Part shown: positions 6,699 through 55,083 of the stretch, piece by piece
Position numbering within the stretch: position 1 is the stretch's first letter
Layout of the letters: each line of letters starts with the position of its first letter
From: Bacteroidota bacterium
GTDB taxonomy: Bacteria; Bacteroidota; Bacteroidia; Sphingobacteriales; Sphingobacteriaceae
Reading direction: 5' to 3'
Assembly (NCBI GenBank): GCA_013289045.1
Contig: JABDAU010000002.1
Location: 28,493 to 92,492 of the forward strand
DNA: 64,000 bases
Made by a program: the position numbers and the translations under genes
The notes under the pieces: model-generated
What the model saw: the letters and a program-made list of their open reading frames with translations, nothing else
The model's database searches: none
What the model was told of the DNA's origin: nothing

Positions 6699-9131
6699 AT
6701 GTTAAAAAACTACCTCAAGATCGCCTTAAGGCAACTGAAAAAACAAAAAATGTATACCGCTATTAAGGTTGGCGGCTTCGCCCTTGGTATTGCTGCCTGC
6801 TTGCTTATTGCTTTATATATCAGGTATGAAACCAGCTATGATCAGTCATATCCTAATGATAGCCGCATATACCGTATTGTAGGCGTAACGCATTATAACG
6901 GCAAGGTTGAGAAAGGTACCGATTTTCCGGCCCCTTTTGGCAAAGCCTTAAAAAACGACTACCCTGAGATAGAAAAATCAGGGCGTTTGATGCGTAATCA
7001 GCTATTTTATGGTGCGGGCAGCAATGAATTCAGGCCGGCAGGCAAGATGCAGAATACCTATGAAACCGGTTTTGTTTATGCCGACCAGGAAATACTGGAC
7101 ATTTTTGGCTATCCCGCTGTTTACGGTAACGTTAAAGGGGCTTTGTTGGAGCCACATAGCATGGTCATTTCCAAGCGCAAGGCAGATAAATATTTCCCGG
7201 GCCAAAACCCTGTTGGCAAAGTGATTTACCTGAACGATGTGAAGAATACGCCATATAAAATAACTGCTGTAATAGAAAATATACCTGAAAACGAGCACCT
7301 GCGGGATTGTGACTTTTTTATATCGTTGGCAGGCCGCGTTTTTGGCGATGAAGAAACAAACTGGAACGATTATAATTACGATAGCTACGTTTTACTGCAT
7401 GCAGGTACCAATGTAAAGCAGTTTGAAAAGAAAATGAGCGAAGGTATGTTAAAGCGCTATTTTTTGCCGACAATGGAAAAAGCCGGTATGTCTAACGCTG
7501 CCGAGGTGGTAAAAAACGCCAGTTTGACGTTACAACCGGTAAGAGATATCAACCTGAAATCATACGATGTTGACGACGGCTTTGGTAATGGCGATATTCG
7601 CTTTGTTTGGCTGTTTGGCGCCATTGCGATCTTTATATTAGTTATCGCCTGCATCAATTTCATCAACCTTTCAACCGCGAAATCGGCCAATCGTGCCAAG
7701 GAAGTAGGCTTGCGTAAAGTGGTAGGCTCTGGTCGCGGTTTGTTGATCAATCAATTCCTTGTAGAATCGATCGTATATAGTTTAGTGTCGTTTATTATCG
7801 GCATTTTGCTTGCCTGCCTGGCATTGCCGTATTTCGATCAGCTTGCCGGCAAACACCTCACCATGCTTTTCGGCGAATGGTGGTTCATACCGTCCATGCT
7901 TGGCGCGGCAATTATAATTGGAATTGCAGCAGGTTTGTATCCGGCTTTTTATTTGTCGTCATTCAAACCGGTAGAGGTGCTTAAAGGTGCGATAAGTAAT
8001 GGCAGCAAGAGCTCATTTCTACGCAACGGTTTGGTGGTGTTCCAGTTCACTACTTCTGTCATCCTGGTTATTGGTACTATTGTTATTTATAACCAGATGC
8101 AGTTTATCCTGAACCGCAAACTTGGGTTCAATAAAGATCAGCTGGTAATGATACAGGGCACCAATACCCTTAAAGATAAGCAGGTAAAAGACTTTAAAAC
8201 TGAATTGCAGAAGCTGGCGGCCATAAAAAGCGTTTCTGTCAGCGATTACCTGCCGGTAAACGGCACAAAGCGTAACGGCAATACTTTCTTTAAAGAAGGG
8301 AGGGATAAAATAGACGCCGGCGTTGGCGGCCAAATGTGGCAAATAGATAACGATTATATCCAAACCCTTGGACTTAAACTGATTGCCGGCCGAAATTTTA
8401 CACCGGGCATATCCTCAGATTCCACAGGTGTGATCATTAACGAGACCATGGCCAAAAAGCTTAACCTGAAAGACCCGGTAGGGAAGCGAATATCCAACGG
8501 AGATCTTCATTATGTTGTTGGTGTGGTGCAGGATTTCAACTTCGAGACAATGAAGCAGGAAATACAGCCTATCGCATTACATTGGGGCTGGAGCCCGTCG
8601 ATAGTTACTGTAAAGATCGGCTCTTCAGATATAAAGAACACGCTTGCAGCTATTACCGCAACCTGGAAACAATTCTCAAACGACCAGCCAATTCGTTATA
8701 CCTTCATGGATCAGGAATTCCAGTTAATGTATACTGATGTACAGCGTACAGCCACCATTTTTACCTGTTTTGCAGTGTTGGCTATTATCATCGGTTGCTT
8801 AGGCTTATTTGCACTGTCGGCGTTTATGGCAGAGCAACGCAGCAAGGAGATAGGTATACGCAAAGTGCTGGGCGCTACAGTGAGCAGCATTACAACATTA
8901 TTATCGGTTGATTTTATAAAGCTGGTATGTATTGCAATTGTTATAGCATCGCCAATTGCCTGGTGGGCAATGAACAAATGGCTGCAGGATTTTGCTTACC
9001 GCATCCCTATCCAATGGTGGATGTTTGTGGTTGCAGGATTATTTGCAGTGATGATCGCCTTGCTTACGGTAAGCTTCCAGTCGATAAAAGCGGCATTGGT
9101 GAACCCCGTAAAGAGCCTTCGCTCAGATTAA
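6699..9131 (+). CDS. MacB/FtsX-family ABC transporter permease
   Basis: MLKNYLKIALR start, IACINFINL...RAKEVGLRKVVG, EIGIRKVLGA, NPVKSLRSD end; duplicated MacB_PCD+FtsX architecture. Confidence 0.93.
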   Translation: MLKNYLKIALRQLKKQKMYTAIKVGGFALGIAACLLIALYIRYETSYDQSYPNDSRIYRIVGVTHYNGKVEKGTDFPAPFGKALKNDYPEIEKSGRLMRNQLFYGAGSNEFRPAGKMQNTYETGFVYADQEILDIFGYPAVYGNVKGALLEPHSMVISKRKADKYFPGQNPVGKVIYLNDVKNTPYKITAVIENIPENEHLRDCDFFISLAGRVFGDEETNWNDYNYDSYVLLHAGTNVKQFEKKMSEGMLKRYFLPTMEKAGMSNAAEVVKNASLTLQPVRDINLKSYDVDDGFGNGDIRFVWLFGAIAIFILVIACINFINLSTAKSANRAKEVGLRKVVGSGRGLLINQFLVESIVYSLVSFIIGILLACLALPYFDQLAGKHLTMLFGEWWFIPSMLGAAIIIGIAAGLYPAFYLSSFKPVEVLKGAISNGSKSSFLRNGLVVFQFTTSVILVIGTIVIYNQMQFILNRKLGFNKDQLVMIQGTNTLKDKQVKDFKTELQKLAAIKSVSVSDYLPVNGTKRNGNTFFKEGRDKIDAGVGGQMWQIDNDYIQTLGLKLIAGRNFTPGISSDSTGVIINETMAKKLNLKDPVGKRISNGDLHYVVGVVQDFNFETMKQEIQPIALHWGWSPSIVTVKIGSSDIKNTLAAITATWKQFSNDQPIRYTFMDQEFQLMYTDVQRTATIFTCFAVLAIIIGCLGLFALSAFMAEQRSKEIGIRKVLGATVSSITTLLSVDFIKLVCIAIVIASPIAWWAMNKWLQDFAYRIPIQWWMFVVAGLFAVMIALLTVSFQSIKAALVNPVKSLRSD

Positions 9132-9390
9132 GCTATGGCTCTCGAAGAGCGCCTGAAGAGTGAATAATTATGATTTTTTAATCAAAATTTAACGCTGTTT
9201 TAAGATAAGTTTTTTGAGGGAAAAGTGATTTTAAGAATTTTTTGAAATAAAAAAACCTGATGATCTGCCTGGTGATGTGAATAAGGGAATTTGTGGATAT
9301 GTTGAAGAACGCAGGAAAGAAACGGAGAAGTCGGCTATCAGTTAGTGTAATAGCAAGGTTTATAACCTTTAACTAATTGTTAGGAACATG

Positions 9391-9444
9391 TTAATAAAAA
9401 ATAAAAAAAACTCTTGACAAATGTGCTTCATCGCACTATCTTAG
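9391..9444 (+). promoter_or_regulatory. Strong promoter: A-rich UP element, TTGACA (9414-9419), 17-bp spacer, TATCTTAG (9437-9444)
   Basis: Fits both the sigma70 -35/-10 spacing and the Bacteroidota -33/-7 (TTG...TAnnTTTG-like) layout; no CDS follows on the + strand. Confidence 0.7.
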
Positions 9445-9449
9445 AAATA

Positions 9450-9943
9450 TCAAGAACGACGTACTTTGACAGGCCTTACAGGAACAACAGGAAAGTGAAT
9501 CGGGGAAATCTTCGGACGAACTAAAGATCACGATACTGCCTGAGTTACACCGGATAGAAGAAGAAAGCTGCAAGCAGCGACGCAAGTCGAAAGGCTGCAC
9601 ACCACAGAACGGCGCAAGCCGGGACGGACGGTAAAAGATCACGCAGCGCAGAACGGAGCACGCAAGTGAAACCAATGCAGTCGGCGCAAGCCGAAGCGAA
9701 ACGATGACTTCAGCTCGTTTGGTGAGCATAACTAAAATAAGGCATTGCGCTGGTTACCGTAAACTACGGAAGAAAGTAACACACACAGCGTAACAGGTGC
9801 TTCAATTACCCGGATCCCGCAAGGGGGATGACGAAACAGCCCGGTCGGATACACAAAACTTGATTGTTCCCTGGCGACTACGGTCGGCATGGGCGCAGAA
9901 AACGGAAGTTCAAATCGAAAGAGGCGGCTTCCGTTTTCGTTTT
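9450..9943 (+). ncRNA. Candidate large structured non-coding RNA (~490 nt), family unrecognised
   Basis: Own promoter and terminator; 5' CAGGAACAA-CAGG pairs with 3' CTTG-A-TTGTTCCCTG; GCAA tetraloop hairpins at 9582, 9614, 9662, 9686, 9819; UUCG at 9511 and UACG at 9879; nested helices; purine-rich; no credible ORF. Confidence 0.75.
9898..9943 (+). terminator. Intrinsic terminator closing the ncRNA (may also serve the convergent GNAT gene)
   Basis: GAAAACGGAAG ... CTTCCGTTTTC 11-bp stem followed by GTTTT. Confidence 0.75.
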
Positions 9944-9998
9944 ATATGGTTTTCGAGATTGCACCGAATTTGTTTGGGCTTGCACCGATTACTATCAA

Positions 9999-10514
9999 TC
10001 AAGAAGCGCGCAATTGAAACAGAGCAGCAGGAGCGTTGTGATAATGATCGGGTAAACCTGTAGTGTCTTTCAGACCAAATATCCCCAAAAAGTCGAAACC
10101 TGCATTGGTGTAATGTTCTATCAGTTTTGTGTTGTTGCCGATAGTATCCAGCCTCACATAATCCAAATTATGCTGTAAAGCATATTCTTTTGCCCACTTA
10201 ACGATTATAGCTACAAAGTTTTGTCCGCGGAAATCGGGGTTTGTAGCGATGCGATGAATGTATATAGCAGCGTCCTTGTTTCTTTCTTCCCAGATCTGCT
10301 CATCGCTGAAAGTTGTGGCCCAAACGCAGGCAACCTTTCCCTCAATTAATAATTTCCATTGGCGGTTTTCGGCAATTTCTGTTTCAACAAGCTCAGGCGC
10401 AAATTCCGGCCAAACCACTACGGTTTGCTTTTGCCGCTGGTAATCAGATGCCAGGCGGTATAGTCTGAATATTTCGGGTATATCATTAATAGTGCTGTTT
10501 TCTATTTGCGGCAT
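9999..10514 (-). CDS. GNAT family N-acetyltransferase
   Basis: YIHRIATNPDFRGQN motif A, VRLDT, LIEHYTNAGF. Confidence 0.9.
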   Translation of the reverse strand: MPQIENSTINDIPEIFRLYRLASDYQRQKQTVVVWPEFAPELVETEIAENRQWKLLIEGKVACVWATTFSDEQIWEERNKDAAIYIHRIATNPDFRGQNFVAIIVKWAKEYALQHNLDYVRLDTIGNNTKLIEHYTNAGFDFLGIFGLKDTTGLPDHYHNAPAALFQLRAS

Positions 10515-10630
10515 ATCGGGTGGTTTTAATGCAAAGATAGAAACCGGCAGTTACGCACAAAACCCGTTTCTTGCTGTTTATTACGCGTTATGGTCATTAA
10601 TCTTGCGTTATAATTATTAAATTGCGCCCT

Positions 10631-11983
10631 ATGCAAAAGGATGGTAAAAGCAAAACCGACAGTAAAAAAAAGATATTCGTTTTAGATACTTCGGTTATCC
10701 TGTATGATCATAACGCCTTTGAAAACTTCCAGGAGCATGATGTGGCCATACCCATACAGGTGCTGGAGGAACTGGATAACATGAAAAGCGGGAATGACAC
10801 CCGCAATTTCGAAGCTCGAAGCTTTATCCGCCTGATGGATGACATCTCGCGTAAAAACCTTATGGATCAATGGCAGCCGCTCAATGGCAAAAGCAAGGGC
10901 AGCTTTAAGGTGATCATCGATACCAAAAACATTGCCGCTGATGCACAGGCTGTTTTCGGGTCTGAAAAGATCGACCATCGTATATTGAATGCTGCATTGG
11001 TCTTACAGGAAGAAAACCCGGATAAAAAGGTTGTATTGGTATCGAAAGATATCTGTCTTCGTCTTAAAGCCAAATCGCTAAGTCTGCATGCTGAGGATTA
11101 TGAAACCGGCAAAATAAAGAATGTAGATGAGCTGTACACCGGGAAAACCGTATTGAACAAAGTTACCGACAAACTGATCACCCAGCTTAATAAACATAAC
11201 TCCCTGCCGGTTGATACGGTAGATCTGCAGGCGCGTACTCACAACCATTTTTATATCCTTAACGGGAAAAATAAATCTATCCCGGCATTTTATAATTCGC
11301 AGTCTGCACTGTTGGAAAAAGTTACCGAGCAGCCTGTTTTTAATATCCAGCCGCGCAATATGGAACAATCATTTGCCATACATGCCTTGCTGCACCCGGA
11401 TATTAAGCTGGTGACCATACAAGGCAACGCCGGTACAGGCAAAACGTTGTTGGCATTAGCGGGAGCATTGGAGCAACGCCGCAATTTCAGGCAGATCTTT
11501 GTTACCCGCCCGATCGTGCCGCTGAGTAATAAAGACATCGGCTTTTTACCCGGCGACATAAAATCAAAGATCGACCCATACATGGCCCCGATATGGGATA
11601 ACCTGAAATTTATCAAAGACCAGTTTGCAGATGACGACAAAATGCAGAGCAAACTGGATGAATTGGTCACCAACGATAAAATCTCCATCACACCGCTGGC
11701 GTTTATCCGCGGGCGTACGCTGAGCAAGATCTTCTTTATTGTAGATGAAGCGCAAAACCTGACGCCGCATGAGATCAAAACCATTATTTCGCGTGCGGGG
11801 GAGAATAGCAAATTCGTATTTACGGGGGATATTTACCAGATAGATACGCCATACCTTGATGCGGAAAGTAACGGGCTGAGTTATTTGATTGATAAAGCCA
11901 AAGATCATCCTTTGTATGCGCATATTACGCTGCAAAAGGGGGAAAGGAGTGAATTGGCTAATTTGGCGACGGAGTTGTTATAA
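10631..11983 (+). CDS. PIN-domain + PhoH ATPase fusion (PhoH2/YlaK type)
   Basis: FVLDTSVIL PIN start, DHRIL, Walker A GNAGTGKT, IRGRTL, DEAQN. Confidence 0.93.
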   Translation: MQKDGKSKTDSKKKIFVLDTSVILYDHNAFENFQEHDVAIPIQVLEELDNMKSGNDTRNFEARSFIRLMDDISRKNLMDQWQPLNGKSKGSFKVIIDTKNIAADAQAVFGSEKIDHRILNAALVLQEENPDKKVVLVSKDICLRLKAKSLSLHAEDYETGKIKNVDELYTGKTVLNKVTDKLITQLNKHNSLPVDTVDLQARTHNHFYILNGKNKSIPAFYNSQSALLEKVTEQPVFNIQPRNMEQSFAIHALLHPDIKLVTIQGNAGTGKTLLALAGALEQRRNFRQIFVTRPIVPLSNKDIGFLPGDIKSKIDPYMAPIWDNLKFIKDQFADDDKMQSKLDELVTNDKISITPLAFIRGRTLSKIFFIVDEAQNLTPHEIKTIISRAGENSKFVFTGDIYQIDTPYLDAESNGLSYLIDKAKDHPLYAHITLQKGERSELANLATELL

Positions 11984-28310: not shown

Positions 28311-28589
28311 ATGTATTTAAGTAAAGAATGGAAATCAGAGATTTTCGAAACACATGGTAAAGGTGCCACCGATACCGGCTCTCCGGAAGCACAGGTAGCT
28401 TTATTTACCAATCGTATCGCTCACTTAACCGGGCACTTAAAGAAAAACAAACACGATTTTTCAACCCAGTTGTCGCTTCAAAAATTAGTAGGTAAACGCC
28501 GCGGATTGCTGGCCTACCTCTATAAAAAAGACATCAACAGGTACCGTGCCATTATAAAGGCCTTACAGCTAAGGGATATCATTAAGTAA
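28311..28589 (+). CDS. rpsO: 30S ribosomal protein S15
   Basis: DTGSPEAQVAL, LVGKRRGLLAYL; -7 promoter TACCTTTG at 28256. Confidence 0.98.
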   Translation: MYLSKEWKSEIFETHGKGATDTGSPEAQVALFTNRIAHLTGHLKKNKHDFSTQLSLQKLVGKRRGLLAYLYKKDINRYRAIIKALQLRDIIK

Positions 28590-54709: not shown

Positions 54710-54719
54710 GGTTTTAAAA

Positions 54720-54826
54720 TTTATAGTCCCCGGGATATTTACCGGGACAGGAATTGGCACCTTCTCTGTCCTTCAGAGGGTTGCCAGCGGGTCAGTGAGC
54801 CTGATCTCTCGCCGCTTCTTTATAAA
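54720..54826 (-). ncRNA. SAM-I (S-box) class riboswitch
   Basis: Minus strand TTATA-AAGAAGCGG-CGAGAGA-TCAGGCTC-ACTGA-CCCGC-TGGCAACC...GGTGCCAATTCC...TATAA upstream of metY-metX-hom; -7 promoter TATATTTG at 54881-54888. Confidence 0.92.
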
Positions 54827-55083
54827 TCAAAACCTTTGTGAGAGGTAATGATCGATTGGTATCGCGACCAAATAATGTTGCAAATATAGCGTGGTGAGAA
54901 ATGATTTTCCAAATTTTATTTTTCTTTTTGGGCGGAAGGTAAAAGGCAAGAGTTAAAAGGCGAAGGGTAAAAGGTAAAATCAAGCCCGAACTTGTCGCAA
55001 ATTGCCTGTAAAAATGTCCGGTTTGCACCTGTCGGAATAATAAGTTTAATTATAAATTTATTCTGTTAAAATATATCAGCCAT

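Follow-up and report, generated by a model that had tools for sequence, protein, structure and literature searches.

A structured non-coding RNA gene of the Sphingobacteriaceae that occurs together with the gene for the helicase-nuclease PhoH2

What occupies the gap between two convergent protein genes, a MacB/FtsX permease gene (6699-9131, +) and a GNAT acetyltransferase gene (9999-10514, -), on a contig of a Mucilaginibacter genome (Sphingobacteriaceae; assembly GCA_013289045.1, contig JABDAU010000002.1)? The question arises from a stretch of 64,000 nucleotides (positions 28,493 to 92,492 of the forward strand), hereafter called the window, to whose first letter all coordinates refer. An original prediction, made from the letters alone, had placed in this gap a previously undescribed, large and highly structured non-coding RNA (ncRNA). 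The analysis reported here establishes that positions 9449-9945 of the + strand are a real, independently transcribed and highly structured ncRNA gene equipped with a promoter and a terminator of its own. It also brings in a second gene, that of PhoH2 (10631-11983, +), whose link to the RNA was missed by the sequence-only reading and is hidden in this genome by the opposite-strand GNAT gene. The joint occurrence of RNA and PhoH2 over more than 35 genera and in two orientations constitutes strong evidence that they form a module.

Evidence for transcription comes from metatranscriptomes, in which pieces of the RNA are present in 24 runs from 19 studies of soil, wood decay, rhizosphere, litter and fresh water. 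The contigs of four runs, representing four soil or wood studies, were compared with positions 8900-10700 of the window. They are confined to 9449-9936 in all four runs, bar a trace at 8900-9021 in one of them (run X1, depth at most 1.3), and the flanks 9022-9448 and 9937-10700 have zero cover throughout. Summed word depth over the RNA ranges from tens (run X5) to about 1e5 (run X3), and the window sequence recurs in several contigs over 88-283 nt with 0-1 differences. All runs consist of contigs, which attest to presence in RNA libraries and to the contrast with the flanks, not to strand, ends or level. In these libraries the RNA is very abundant, greatly outnumbering any phoH2 transcript, and given its depth in soil metatranscriptomes it makes up a considerable share of such data sets without being annotated in them. 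An Illumina adapter is joined directly to 9464 in contigs of two studies, 15 nt inside the predicted transcript, a weak hint that may reflect either a processed 5' end or a stop of reverse transcription.

The gene measures about 495 nt, with a start predicted from the -7 box and an end in the U tract past the terminator. The TTGACA-17-TATCTTAG promoter and the terminator that had been proposed are both present. At 9414-9444 (+), a -33-type TTGACA (9414-9419) is followed by a 17-nt spacer and a Bacteroidota-type -7 box, TATCTTAG (9437-9444), and this segment probably acts as the promoter. The -7 box of the Bacteroidota has the form TAnnTTTG, which TATCTTAG resembles, and homologues keep a -7-like box (CTATCTTAG, CTACCTTAG or GATATTGA) at an equal distance upstream of AUCAAG. 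At the opposite end lies an intrinsic terminator (9898-9945, +), made up of an 11-bp stem (9898-9908/9928-9938) with a conserved apical AAUCGAAAGA element and a U tract, the sequence of which is conserved across genera (alignment A4). The tetraloop hairpins listed in the original prediction (CGAC-GCAA-GUCG at 9578, CGGC-GCAA-GCCG at 9610, CAC-GCAA-GUG at 9659, UCGGC-GCAA-GCCGA at 9681, CCC-GCAA-GGG at 9816, UC-UUCG-GA at 9509 and CGAC-UACG-GUCG at 9875) all lie where they had been reported, and the argument built upon them, that their bias towards the + strand betrays selection at the RNA level, was borne out. Hairpins capped by GNRA or UNCG loops on a stem of at least 3 bp number nine on the + strand and one on the - strand, as against a mean of 1.34 (sd 1.13, maximum 6) in 2000 dinucleotide shuffles. 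The minimum free energy z-score of the region relative to shuffles is -2.85 for the + strand and -0.72 for the - strand.

Searches for known families support the view that this RNA is not RNase P, tmRNA, SRP or an intron. Rfam 15 yields no match in the RNA region at gathering thresholds, and none of its models of OLE, GOLLD, ROOL, raiA, HEARO, SRP or group I/II introns matches the RNA. Permissive thresholds return only noise; the best candidate, RAGATH-8 at 9298-9473 (15.1 bits versus a threshold of 86.7), falls mostly upstream of the RNA and was treated as a chance match between purine-rich sequences. Eight homologous loci likewise give nothing against Rfam at E<=0.01, and ARAGORN detects neither a tRNA nor a tmRNA in the region. 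In four related genomes RNase P RNA is located elsewhere, so the RNA at 9449-9945 is distinct from it. A conserved open reading frame was also looked for across the homologues, and none exists, the longest + strand frames spanning 0-56 codons at inconsistent positions.

The fold was derived from 52 non-redundant short forms of the RNA (alignment A3), folded with RNAalifold. The consensus comprises 87 pairs in 20 helices, with 88.8% of cells paired, and compensatory change on both sides is seen in 49 of the 87 pairs, so that the covariation expected of a genuine structured RNA is indeed present among its homologues. Out of 500 column shuffles, none reaches any of five measures, and in a control in which the 3' partners were slid by ±1-3 columns the paired cells fall to 32-46% and the compensated pairs to 22-35. 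All helices described here lie on the + strand. The closing helix, P1, pairs AUCAAG (9449-9454) with CUUGAU (9859-9864) in 98.7% of cells; it is invariant inside the genus, and other genera show the compensatory combinations AUCAAU/AUUGAU and AUCAAA/UUUGAU. Two short helices follow, GUA 9461-9463/UAC 9850-9852 (98% paired) and UUGAC 9466-9470/GUCGG 9844-9848 (91% paired), the columns of which are mostly invariant or wobble-only and hence weakly tested by covariation; their 5' side, 9461-9470, is part of the RNA's invariant 5' segment. A motif that does not vary in the genus, UACACAAAACUUGAU (9850-9864), supplies the 3' strands for both P1 and the GUA/UAC helix.

Further in, helix P3 (GCCUU 9473-9477/AAGGC 9739-9743; 93.7% paired, 3 of 5 pairs compensatory) encloses a conserved 5' domain and variable region 1. 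The 5' domain (9479-9542) is a long hairpin closed by CAGG (9479-9482) and CCUG (9539-9542), a helix that covaries as CAAG/CUUG and CAGA/UCUG, and it contains UGAAUC/GAUCA, GG/CU and a UUCG-capped tip (loop 9511-9514). Its helices (5-10 of the consensus) all present compensatory changes, and the domain is covered by a further alignment (A2). The central domain (9748-9790) is formed by CGCUG 9748-9752/CAGCG 9786-9790 and GUUAC 9753-9757/GUAAC 9776-9780, with compensatory change in 5/5 and 4/4 pairs, respectively. It holds a conserved UACGGAR motif (9765-9771), which reads UACGGAA in the window and, nearly invariantly, UACGGAG in homologues. A conserved GNRA hairpin, CCC-GCAA-GGG, follows at 9816-9825 (4/4 pairs compensatory, 94% paired). 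Two elements lie 3' of P1, namely a hairpin at 9866-9896 with a UACG loop (9879-9882) and a CGAC 9875-9878/GUCG 9883-9886 core, in which 9 of 10 pairs are compensatory, and then the sequence-conserved terminator hairpin. The consensus fold yielded no alternative pairing that could act as an anti-terminator.

This map both upholds and corrects the one proposed from the window sequence. The helices at 9748/9790 and 9753/9780, the hairpins at 9816 and 9875 and the UUCG hairpin are conserved and covarying. On the other hand, the pairing of the ends that had been drawn between 9479-9501 and 9848-9873 is not conserved, since the sequence of its 3' partner is absent from homologues; it is specific to the window and clashes with both the covarying CAGG/CCUG helix and the 3' hairpin. 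The AAACGA/UCGUUU helix (9699-9720) found no support either, because RNA contigs vary at 9719 and 9720 without compensation.

Much of the size of the window copy is due to variable region 1 (9546-9729, +), a lineage-specific insertion of 184 nt with four GCAA-capped hairpins (loops at 9582, 9614, 9662 and 9686). Most homologues lack 9546-9729, the short forms carrying a single GNRA hairpin there, and in RNA contigs of three studies 9545 is joined directly to 9730, these being short-form relatives. Hairpins of the insertion are supported by linked double changes among near-identical RNA-contig variants, which preserve pairing at 9681:9694 (U-A to C-G) and 9655:9673 (G-C to A-U), and also create a pair at 9658:9669 (C-G). 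At the same site, two Mucilaginibacter homologues carry tandem units of 31 nt, five copies in one (locus L080, 4886-5041) and four in the other (L007), and each unit is a GNRA-capped hairpin; variable region 1 thus grows by module duplication. The four GCAA hairpins of the window have diverged, and TRF sees no period in them and no tandem repeat anywhere in 9400-9960. Among 110 distinct copies of the RNA, 56 measure 331-355 nt, 12 measure 384-394 nt, two measure 420-428 nt, ten (the window copy included) measure 489-523 nt and 30 measure 578-622 nt.

How widely is this RNA distributed? Within its own genus, Mucilaginibacter, BLASTN finds the 5' ~110 nt and 3' ~100 nt in 22 of 24 genomes, and it finds them in none of 16 other families. 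Covariance models for the 5' domain (R1) and for the 3' domain (R2, built from several genera) score the window at 94.9 bits (9449-9549) and 81.3 bits (9839-9939), respectively. Each gives a single copy in the window, and the suggestion of a second or degenerate copy in 9131-9410 was rejected; the genome from which the window comes (63% complete) likewise contains one copy of the RNA. The window RNA belongs to the family by its 5' domain (AUCAAGAACGACGUACUUUGA... and the CAGG/CCUG hairpin), matched by R1, by its 3' domain (CUUGAU, the UACG hairpin and the sequence-conserved terminator), matched by R2, and by its genomic association with a PIN_4-PhoH gene, which is direct in most relatives. The first 21 nt of the RNA are invariant in alignment A1, and the 5' sequence ATCAAGAACGACGTAC.TTGA, with one variable position, is kept in its 15 rows, the window among them. 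Weaker R1 homologues occur in other genera of the Sphingobacteriaceae, again directly upstream of PhoH2, and homologues lie upstream of PhoH2 in a large genus (g41) that is probably Pedobacter. In an exact-pattern scan, some matches outside the Bacteroidota were ignored as chance, about 70 being expected for 17 specified bases in 596 Gb.

The partner gene encodes a PIN_4 nuclease joined to a PhoH ATPase/helicase (Pfam PIN_4, 6e-34; PhoH, 4e-50), and its product matches NCBIfam NF053827, 'RNA 5'-3' helicase PhoH2', over its full length (3e-78) at a score under the equivalog cut-off. PADLOC does not list it as a catalogued defence protein, returning only weak matches at the P-loop/helicase level. 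The usual Mucilaginibacter locus consists of a radical-SAM/DUF4130 operon, the RNA and then the PIN_4-PhoH gene on the same strand. When 109 distinct complete elements, mostly from Mucilaginibacter, were scored for a downstream PhoH2, its start lay within 300 nt 3' of the RNA on the same strand in 56 of them (median gap 69 nt), at 301-1500 nt in 17 and further away in five, with too little DNA to tell in 23. In the window this distance is 686 nt from the RNA end, and the one gene in between, the GNAT acetyltransferase (Pfam Acetyltransf_1), occupies that position in this genome only, is missing from it in the 56 close loci and stands outside the module.

The coupling of both genes was assessed by searching for the PhoH2 protein and for model R2 in a single draw of 151 genomes of the Sphingobacteriaceae. 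Of these, 53 have PhoH2 and 51 the RNA; 50 genomes have both, three PhoH2 only, one the RNA only and 97 neither. By genus, the corresponding figures are 15 with both, one with PhoH2 only and 21 with neither. The three genomes with PhoH2 alone are one with a divergent RNA-like element upstream (G071), one that is very fragmented (G177) and one with no such element within 1.2 kb (G057), and the genome with the RNA alone (G132) is 81% complete. Where both are present, they lie within ~1 kb of each other in about 43 of the 50 genomes. In three genera (g20, g21 and g37; 14 genomes), the RNA is divergent from PhoH2 yet adjacent to it, with back-to-back promoters, and the adjacency therefore survives inversion. 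A single PhoH2 gene is preceded by one to three RNA paralogues in tandem, and in many genomes by two or three; every copy is equipped with a promoter and a terminator. In six two-copy Mucilaginibacter loci (L075, L103, L159, L099, L051 and L059), the PhoH2-proximal copy is a distinct paralogue, with a promoter context of TTTGCAGA...GATATTGA and with altered versions of the otherwise invariant 5' and 3' motifs that still pair. One genome (G002) contributes a single row (L004) to alignments A1-A3 and one of the 22 genus matches, and another (G365) is one of the 106 PhoH2-positive Bacteroidia genomes mentioned below; no claim depends on either.

Given this coupling, what might the RNA do? We consider it probable, with some reserve, that it is a dedicated trans-acting partner of PhoH2 in a two-gene module, most likely binding the enzyme and either restraining it or setting its specificity. 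The RNA would act in trans on PhoH2, presumably through physical binding and in the role of inhibitor, cofactor or substrate. It might bind the PhoH2 hexamer, a PIN RNase fused to a PhoH 5'-3' RNA helicase, in such a way that helicase and nuclease are held in check; alternatively, it might set the specificity of the enzyme. With both of its ends base-paired, it would offer no 5' single-stranded tail on which a 5'-3' helicase could load, and the variable array of GNRA hairpins could supply repeated contact sites for multivalent contact with the hexamer. A trans-acting, restraining partner is favoured because both ends are paired, because the RNA outnumbers the phoH2 transcript and because the arrays suit multivalency. 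A bolder formulation, to which we hold only tentatively, envisages an uncharacterised ribonucleoprotein in which the ornate RNA gates or directs the hexameric PIN-nuclease/5'-3' helicase, whether as a novel type of RNA 'antitoxin' or as a subunit that confers specificity, and in which lineage-specific hairpin arrays tune multivalent binding. If this formulation were true, the RNA would be the first physiological ligand for the widespread PhoH2 family.

Several observations weigh against a dedicated partnership. Very high abundance fits a housekeeping RNA as well. For eight of the 109 scored elements, the downstream DNA lacks PhoH2 over at least 1.5 kb, and in five genomes the RNA and PhoH2 genes are widely separated or placed on different contigs (G151, G078, G085 at 22 kb, and G165 and G163 at ~4 kb). 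Adjacent genes can be lost by a single deletion and related genomes are not independent, so that the co-occurrence overstates the coupling. Moreover, PhoH2 is found in 106 of 151 Bacteroidia genomes and the RNA family is confidently detected only in the Sphingobacteriaceae; hence, PhoH2 can do without this particular RNA. Weak R2 matches do occur in four other Bacteroidia families (loci L202-L207, in genomes G323, G374, G309 and G307). They are purine-rich, GNRA-dense RNAs without an Rfam match that share the 5' motif GUCAAGUGAGRGAUAAAAGG, have a pairing CUUGA near the 3' end and carry a similar terminator. One of these genomes (G307) has two near-identical copies, one of them divergent from and adjacent to PhoH2, and in two others (G323 and G374) the RNA is on other contigs than PhoH2. 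A wider superfamily of related RNAs in the Bacteroidia, including these loci, is possible.

The most serious competitor, which we regard as unlikely, is an abundant regulatory or housekeeping RNA independent of PhoH2, whether 6S-like or a sponge or scaffold for another protein, with a synteny that is merely inherited. The extreme abundance in metatranscriptomes, the promoter and terminator of its own and the several genomes in which the RNA lies distant from PhoH2 would all suit it, and so would the fact that Rfam 6S models return nothing in Mucilaginibacter, leaving the 6S equivalent of the genus unaccounted for. The 6S searches are, however, uninformative: RF00013 and RF01685 (6S-Flavo) gave no match in five Mucilaginibacter genomes, but RF00013 was also silent in a Bacteroides thetaiotaomicron control and RF01685 in 14 of 14 control genomes. 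A branched fold of 340-620 nt is, in addition, quite different from the 6S rod of ~185 nt with its central bubble. Contrary to what would be expected of a housekeeping RNA, this one was not found in 100 of the 151 family genomes and its absence tracks that of PhoH2 almost perfectly, and the adjacency is kept in two orientations in at least 15 genera.

An improbable option, ranked below independence from PhoH2, is that the RNA is a specific substrate of PhoH2, or a precursor processed by PhoH2 or another RNase, with fragments or controlled turnover as the output. PhoH2 is known to unwind and degrade RNA (PMC7390352), the first 21 nt are invariant and the adapter junction at 9464 hints at a processed 5' end. 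RNA ends, though, are not establishable from contigs, the whole of 9449-9936 is covered at high depth, and the P1 strand 9449-9454 covaries across genera, so that the 5' segment belongs to the fold. We give very little credit to the idea of a riboswitch-like, cis-acting leader or attenuator of phoH2, in which case transcription would stop in a regulated manner at the terminator (9898-9945) and the abundant RNA would represent the terminated leader. Most Mucilaginibacter loci do have the RNA upstream of phoH2 in the same orientation, with a median gap of 69 nt, and terminated leaders may be abundant. Yet leaders and riboswitches are defined by a same-strand, contiguous position and by the lack of an independent existence, which is not how the window RNA is arranged. 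The idea is largely refuted, because RNA gene and phoH2 point away from each other in three genera (14 genomes), an opposite-strand GNAT gene intervenes in the window, the tandem paralogues are self-contained units and phoH2 has a -7-like box of its own just upstream of its start, in the window and in relatives. The stem of the terminator is, moreover, conserved in sequence, and the consensus fold revealed no anti-terminator pairing. The box in question, TAAATTGC, sits a few bases upstream of the PhoH2 ATG at 10631 (within 10600-10633), where relatives have TAATTTAG, and suggests that phoH2 is transcribed from a promoter of its own into a nearly leaderless mRNA.

Two side observations concern the surroundings of the module. 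The GNAT protein (9999-10514) is weakly similar to the streptothricin acetyltransferases Sat4 and Sat2, at scores far under the cut-offs, and a SAM-I riboswitch (RF00162) at 54718-54828 (-), with 77.1 bits, is the sole match of the window to Rfam at gathering level.

Is the family new? A recent preprint (bioRxiv, 22 Oct 2026; 10.64898/2026.10.21.760802) reports as its top COMPASS cluster, #1,412,455, a multistem RNA without known-family annotation. It is described there as a 357-nt motif with 326 loci, 148 of them adjoining PhoH2 and 228 within 5 kb, and with RNA-seq coverage in Pedobacter mucosus Q8-18, itself a member of the Sphingobacteriaceae. The cluster belongs to a Bacteroidota-enriched subtree of PhoH2, other RNA architectures being found beside other PhoH2 lineages (10.64898/2026.10.21.760802). 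Taxon, position, length and lack of annotation, compared by description only, make it very probable that the window RNA family and this cluster are one and the same. The original claim of a new large ncRNA class hence stands as regards the kind of element, which is structured, self-contained and encoded on the + strand, and very probably falls as regards its being previously undescribed. In both descriptions an un-annotated multistem RNA recurs by PIN_4-PhoH genes, and the 357 nt of the cluster compare with 331-355 nt for the short form seen here; the window copy differs in being a 495-nt expanded form with the 184-nt hairpin-array insertion. To the published picture the present work adds a phyletic co-occurrence that is nearly perfect, loci in which RNA and PhoH2 are divergent, a division into size classes, paralogues in tandem, the abundance in metatranscriptomes and a corrected helix map.

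The interest of the association lies to a great extent in the protein. PhoH2 is conserved across bacteria and archaea, and its biological role has been described as poorly characterised (PMC7390352); a covarying and abundant RNA whose gains, losses and position go together with those of PhoH2 thus provides a concrete candidate for its ligand or regulator. The enzyme is best compared through mycobacteria, where PhoH2 combines an ATP-dependent RNA helicase with a PIN RNase in one fusion protein and phoH2 is co-transcribed with an upstream gene, phoAT, the product of which binds PhoH2 and has been likened to the antitoxin VapB (PMC7390352). The PhoAT-PhoH2 system of Andrews and Arcus (PMC7390352) shares with the locus studied here the enzyme family and a small gene directly upstream whose product is proposed to restrain a PIN nuclease. 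It departs from it in that PhoAT is a small co-transcribed protein, whereas the element found here is an ncRNA, 340-620 nt long and served by a promoter and a terminator of its own. By analogy, our favoured reading would make the RNA the counterpart of PhoAT.

Type III toxin-antitoxin systems (ToxIN, AbiEi-like RNA antitoxins) offer a parallel at the level of the antitoxin, with an abundant RNA just upstream of an RNase gene, followed by a terminator, and a proposed neutralisation by direct binding. ToxI, however, consists of ~36-nt tandem repeats that are cut by the toxin into units forming closed heteromeric assemblies, whereas the window RNA is a single branched fold without tandem repeat, and its partner is a PIN-helicase rather than ToxN or AbiQ. 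The direct repeats of ~34-36 nt upstream of a ToxN/AbiQ-type endoRNase that mark type III antitoxins are accordingly lacking in the window RNA. In its architecture, finally, the RNA resembles OLE, GOLLD, ROOL, raiA and HEARO, with which it has in common a length of 350-600 nt, many covarying helices, GNRA tetraloops and high expression. Large ornate bacterial ncRNAs are, to our knowledge, rare, and we know of no biochemical role for OLE, GOLLD, ROOL or raiA; for the family described here there is an obvious candidate protein, and its hosts (Mucilaginibacter and Pedobacter) can be cultured. This family is set apart from those RNAs by the lack of a match to any of their Rfam models, by its Sphingobacteriaceae range and by its association with PhoH2.

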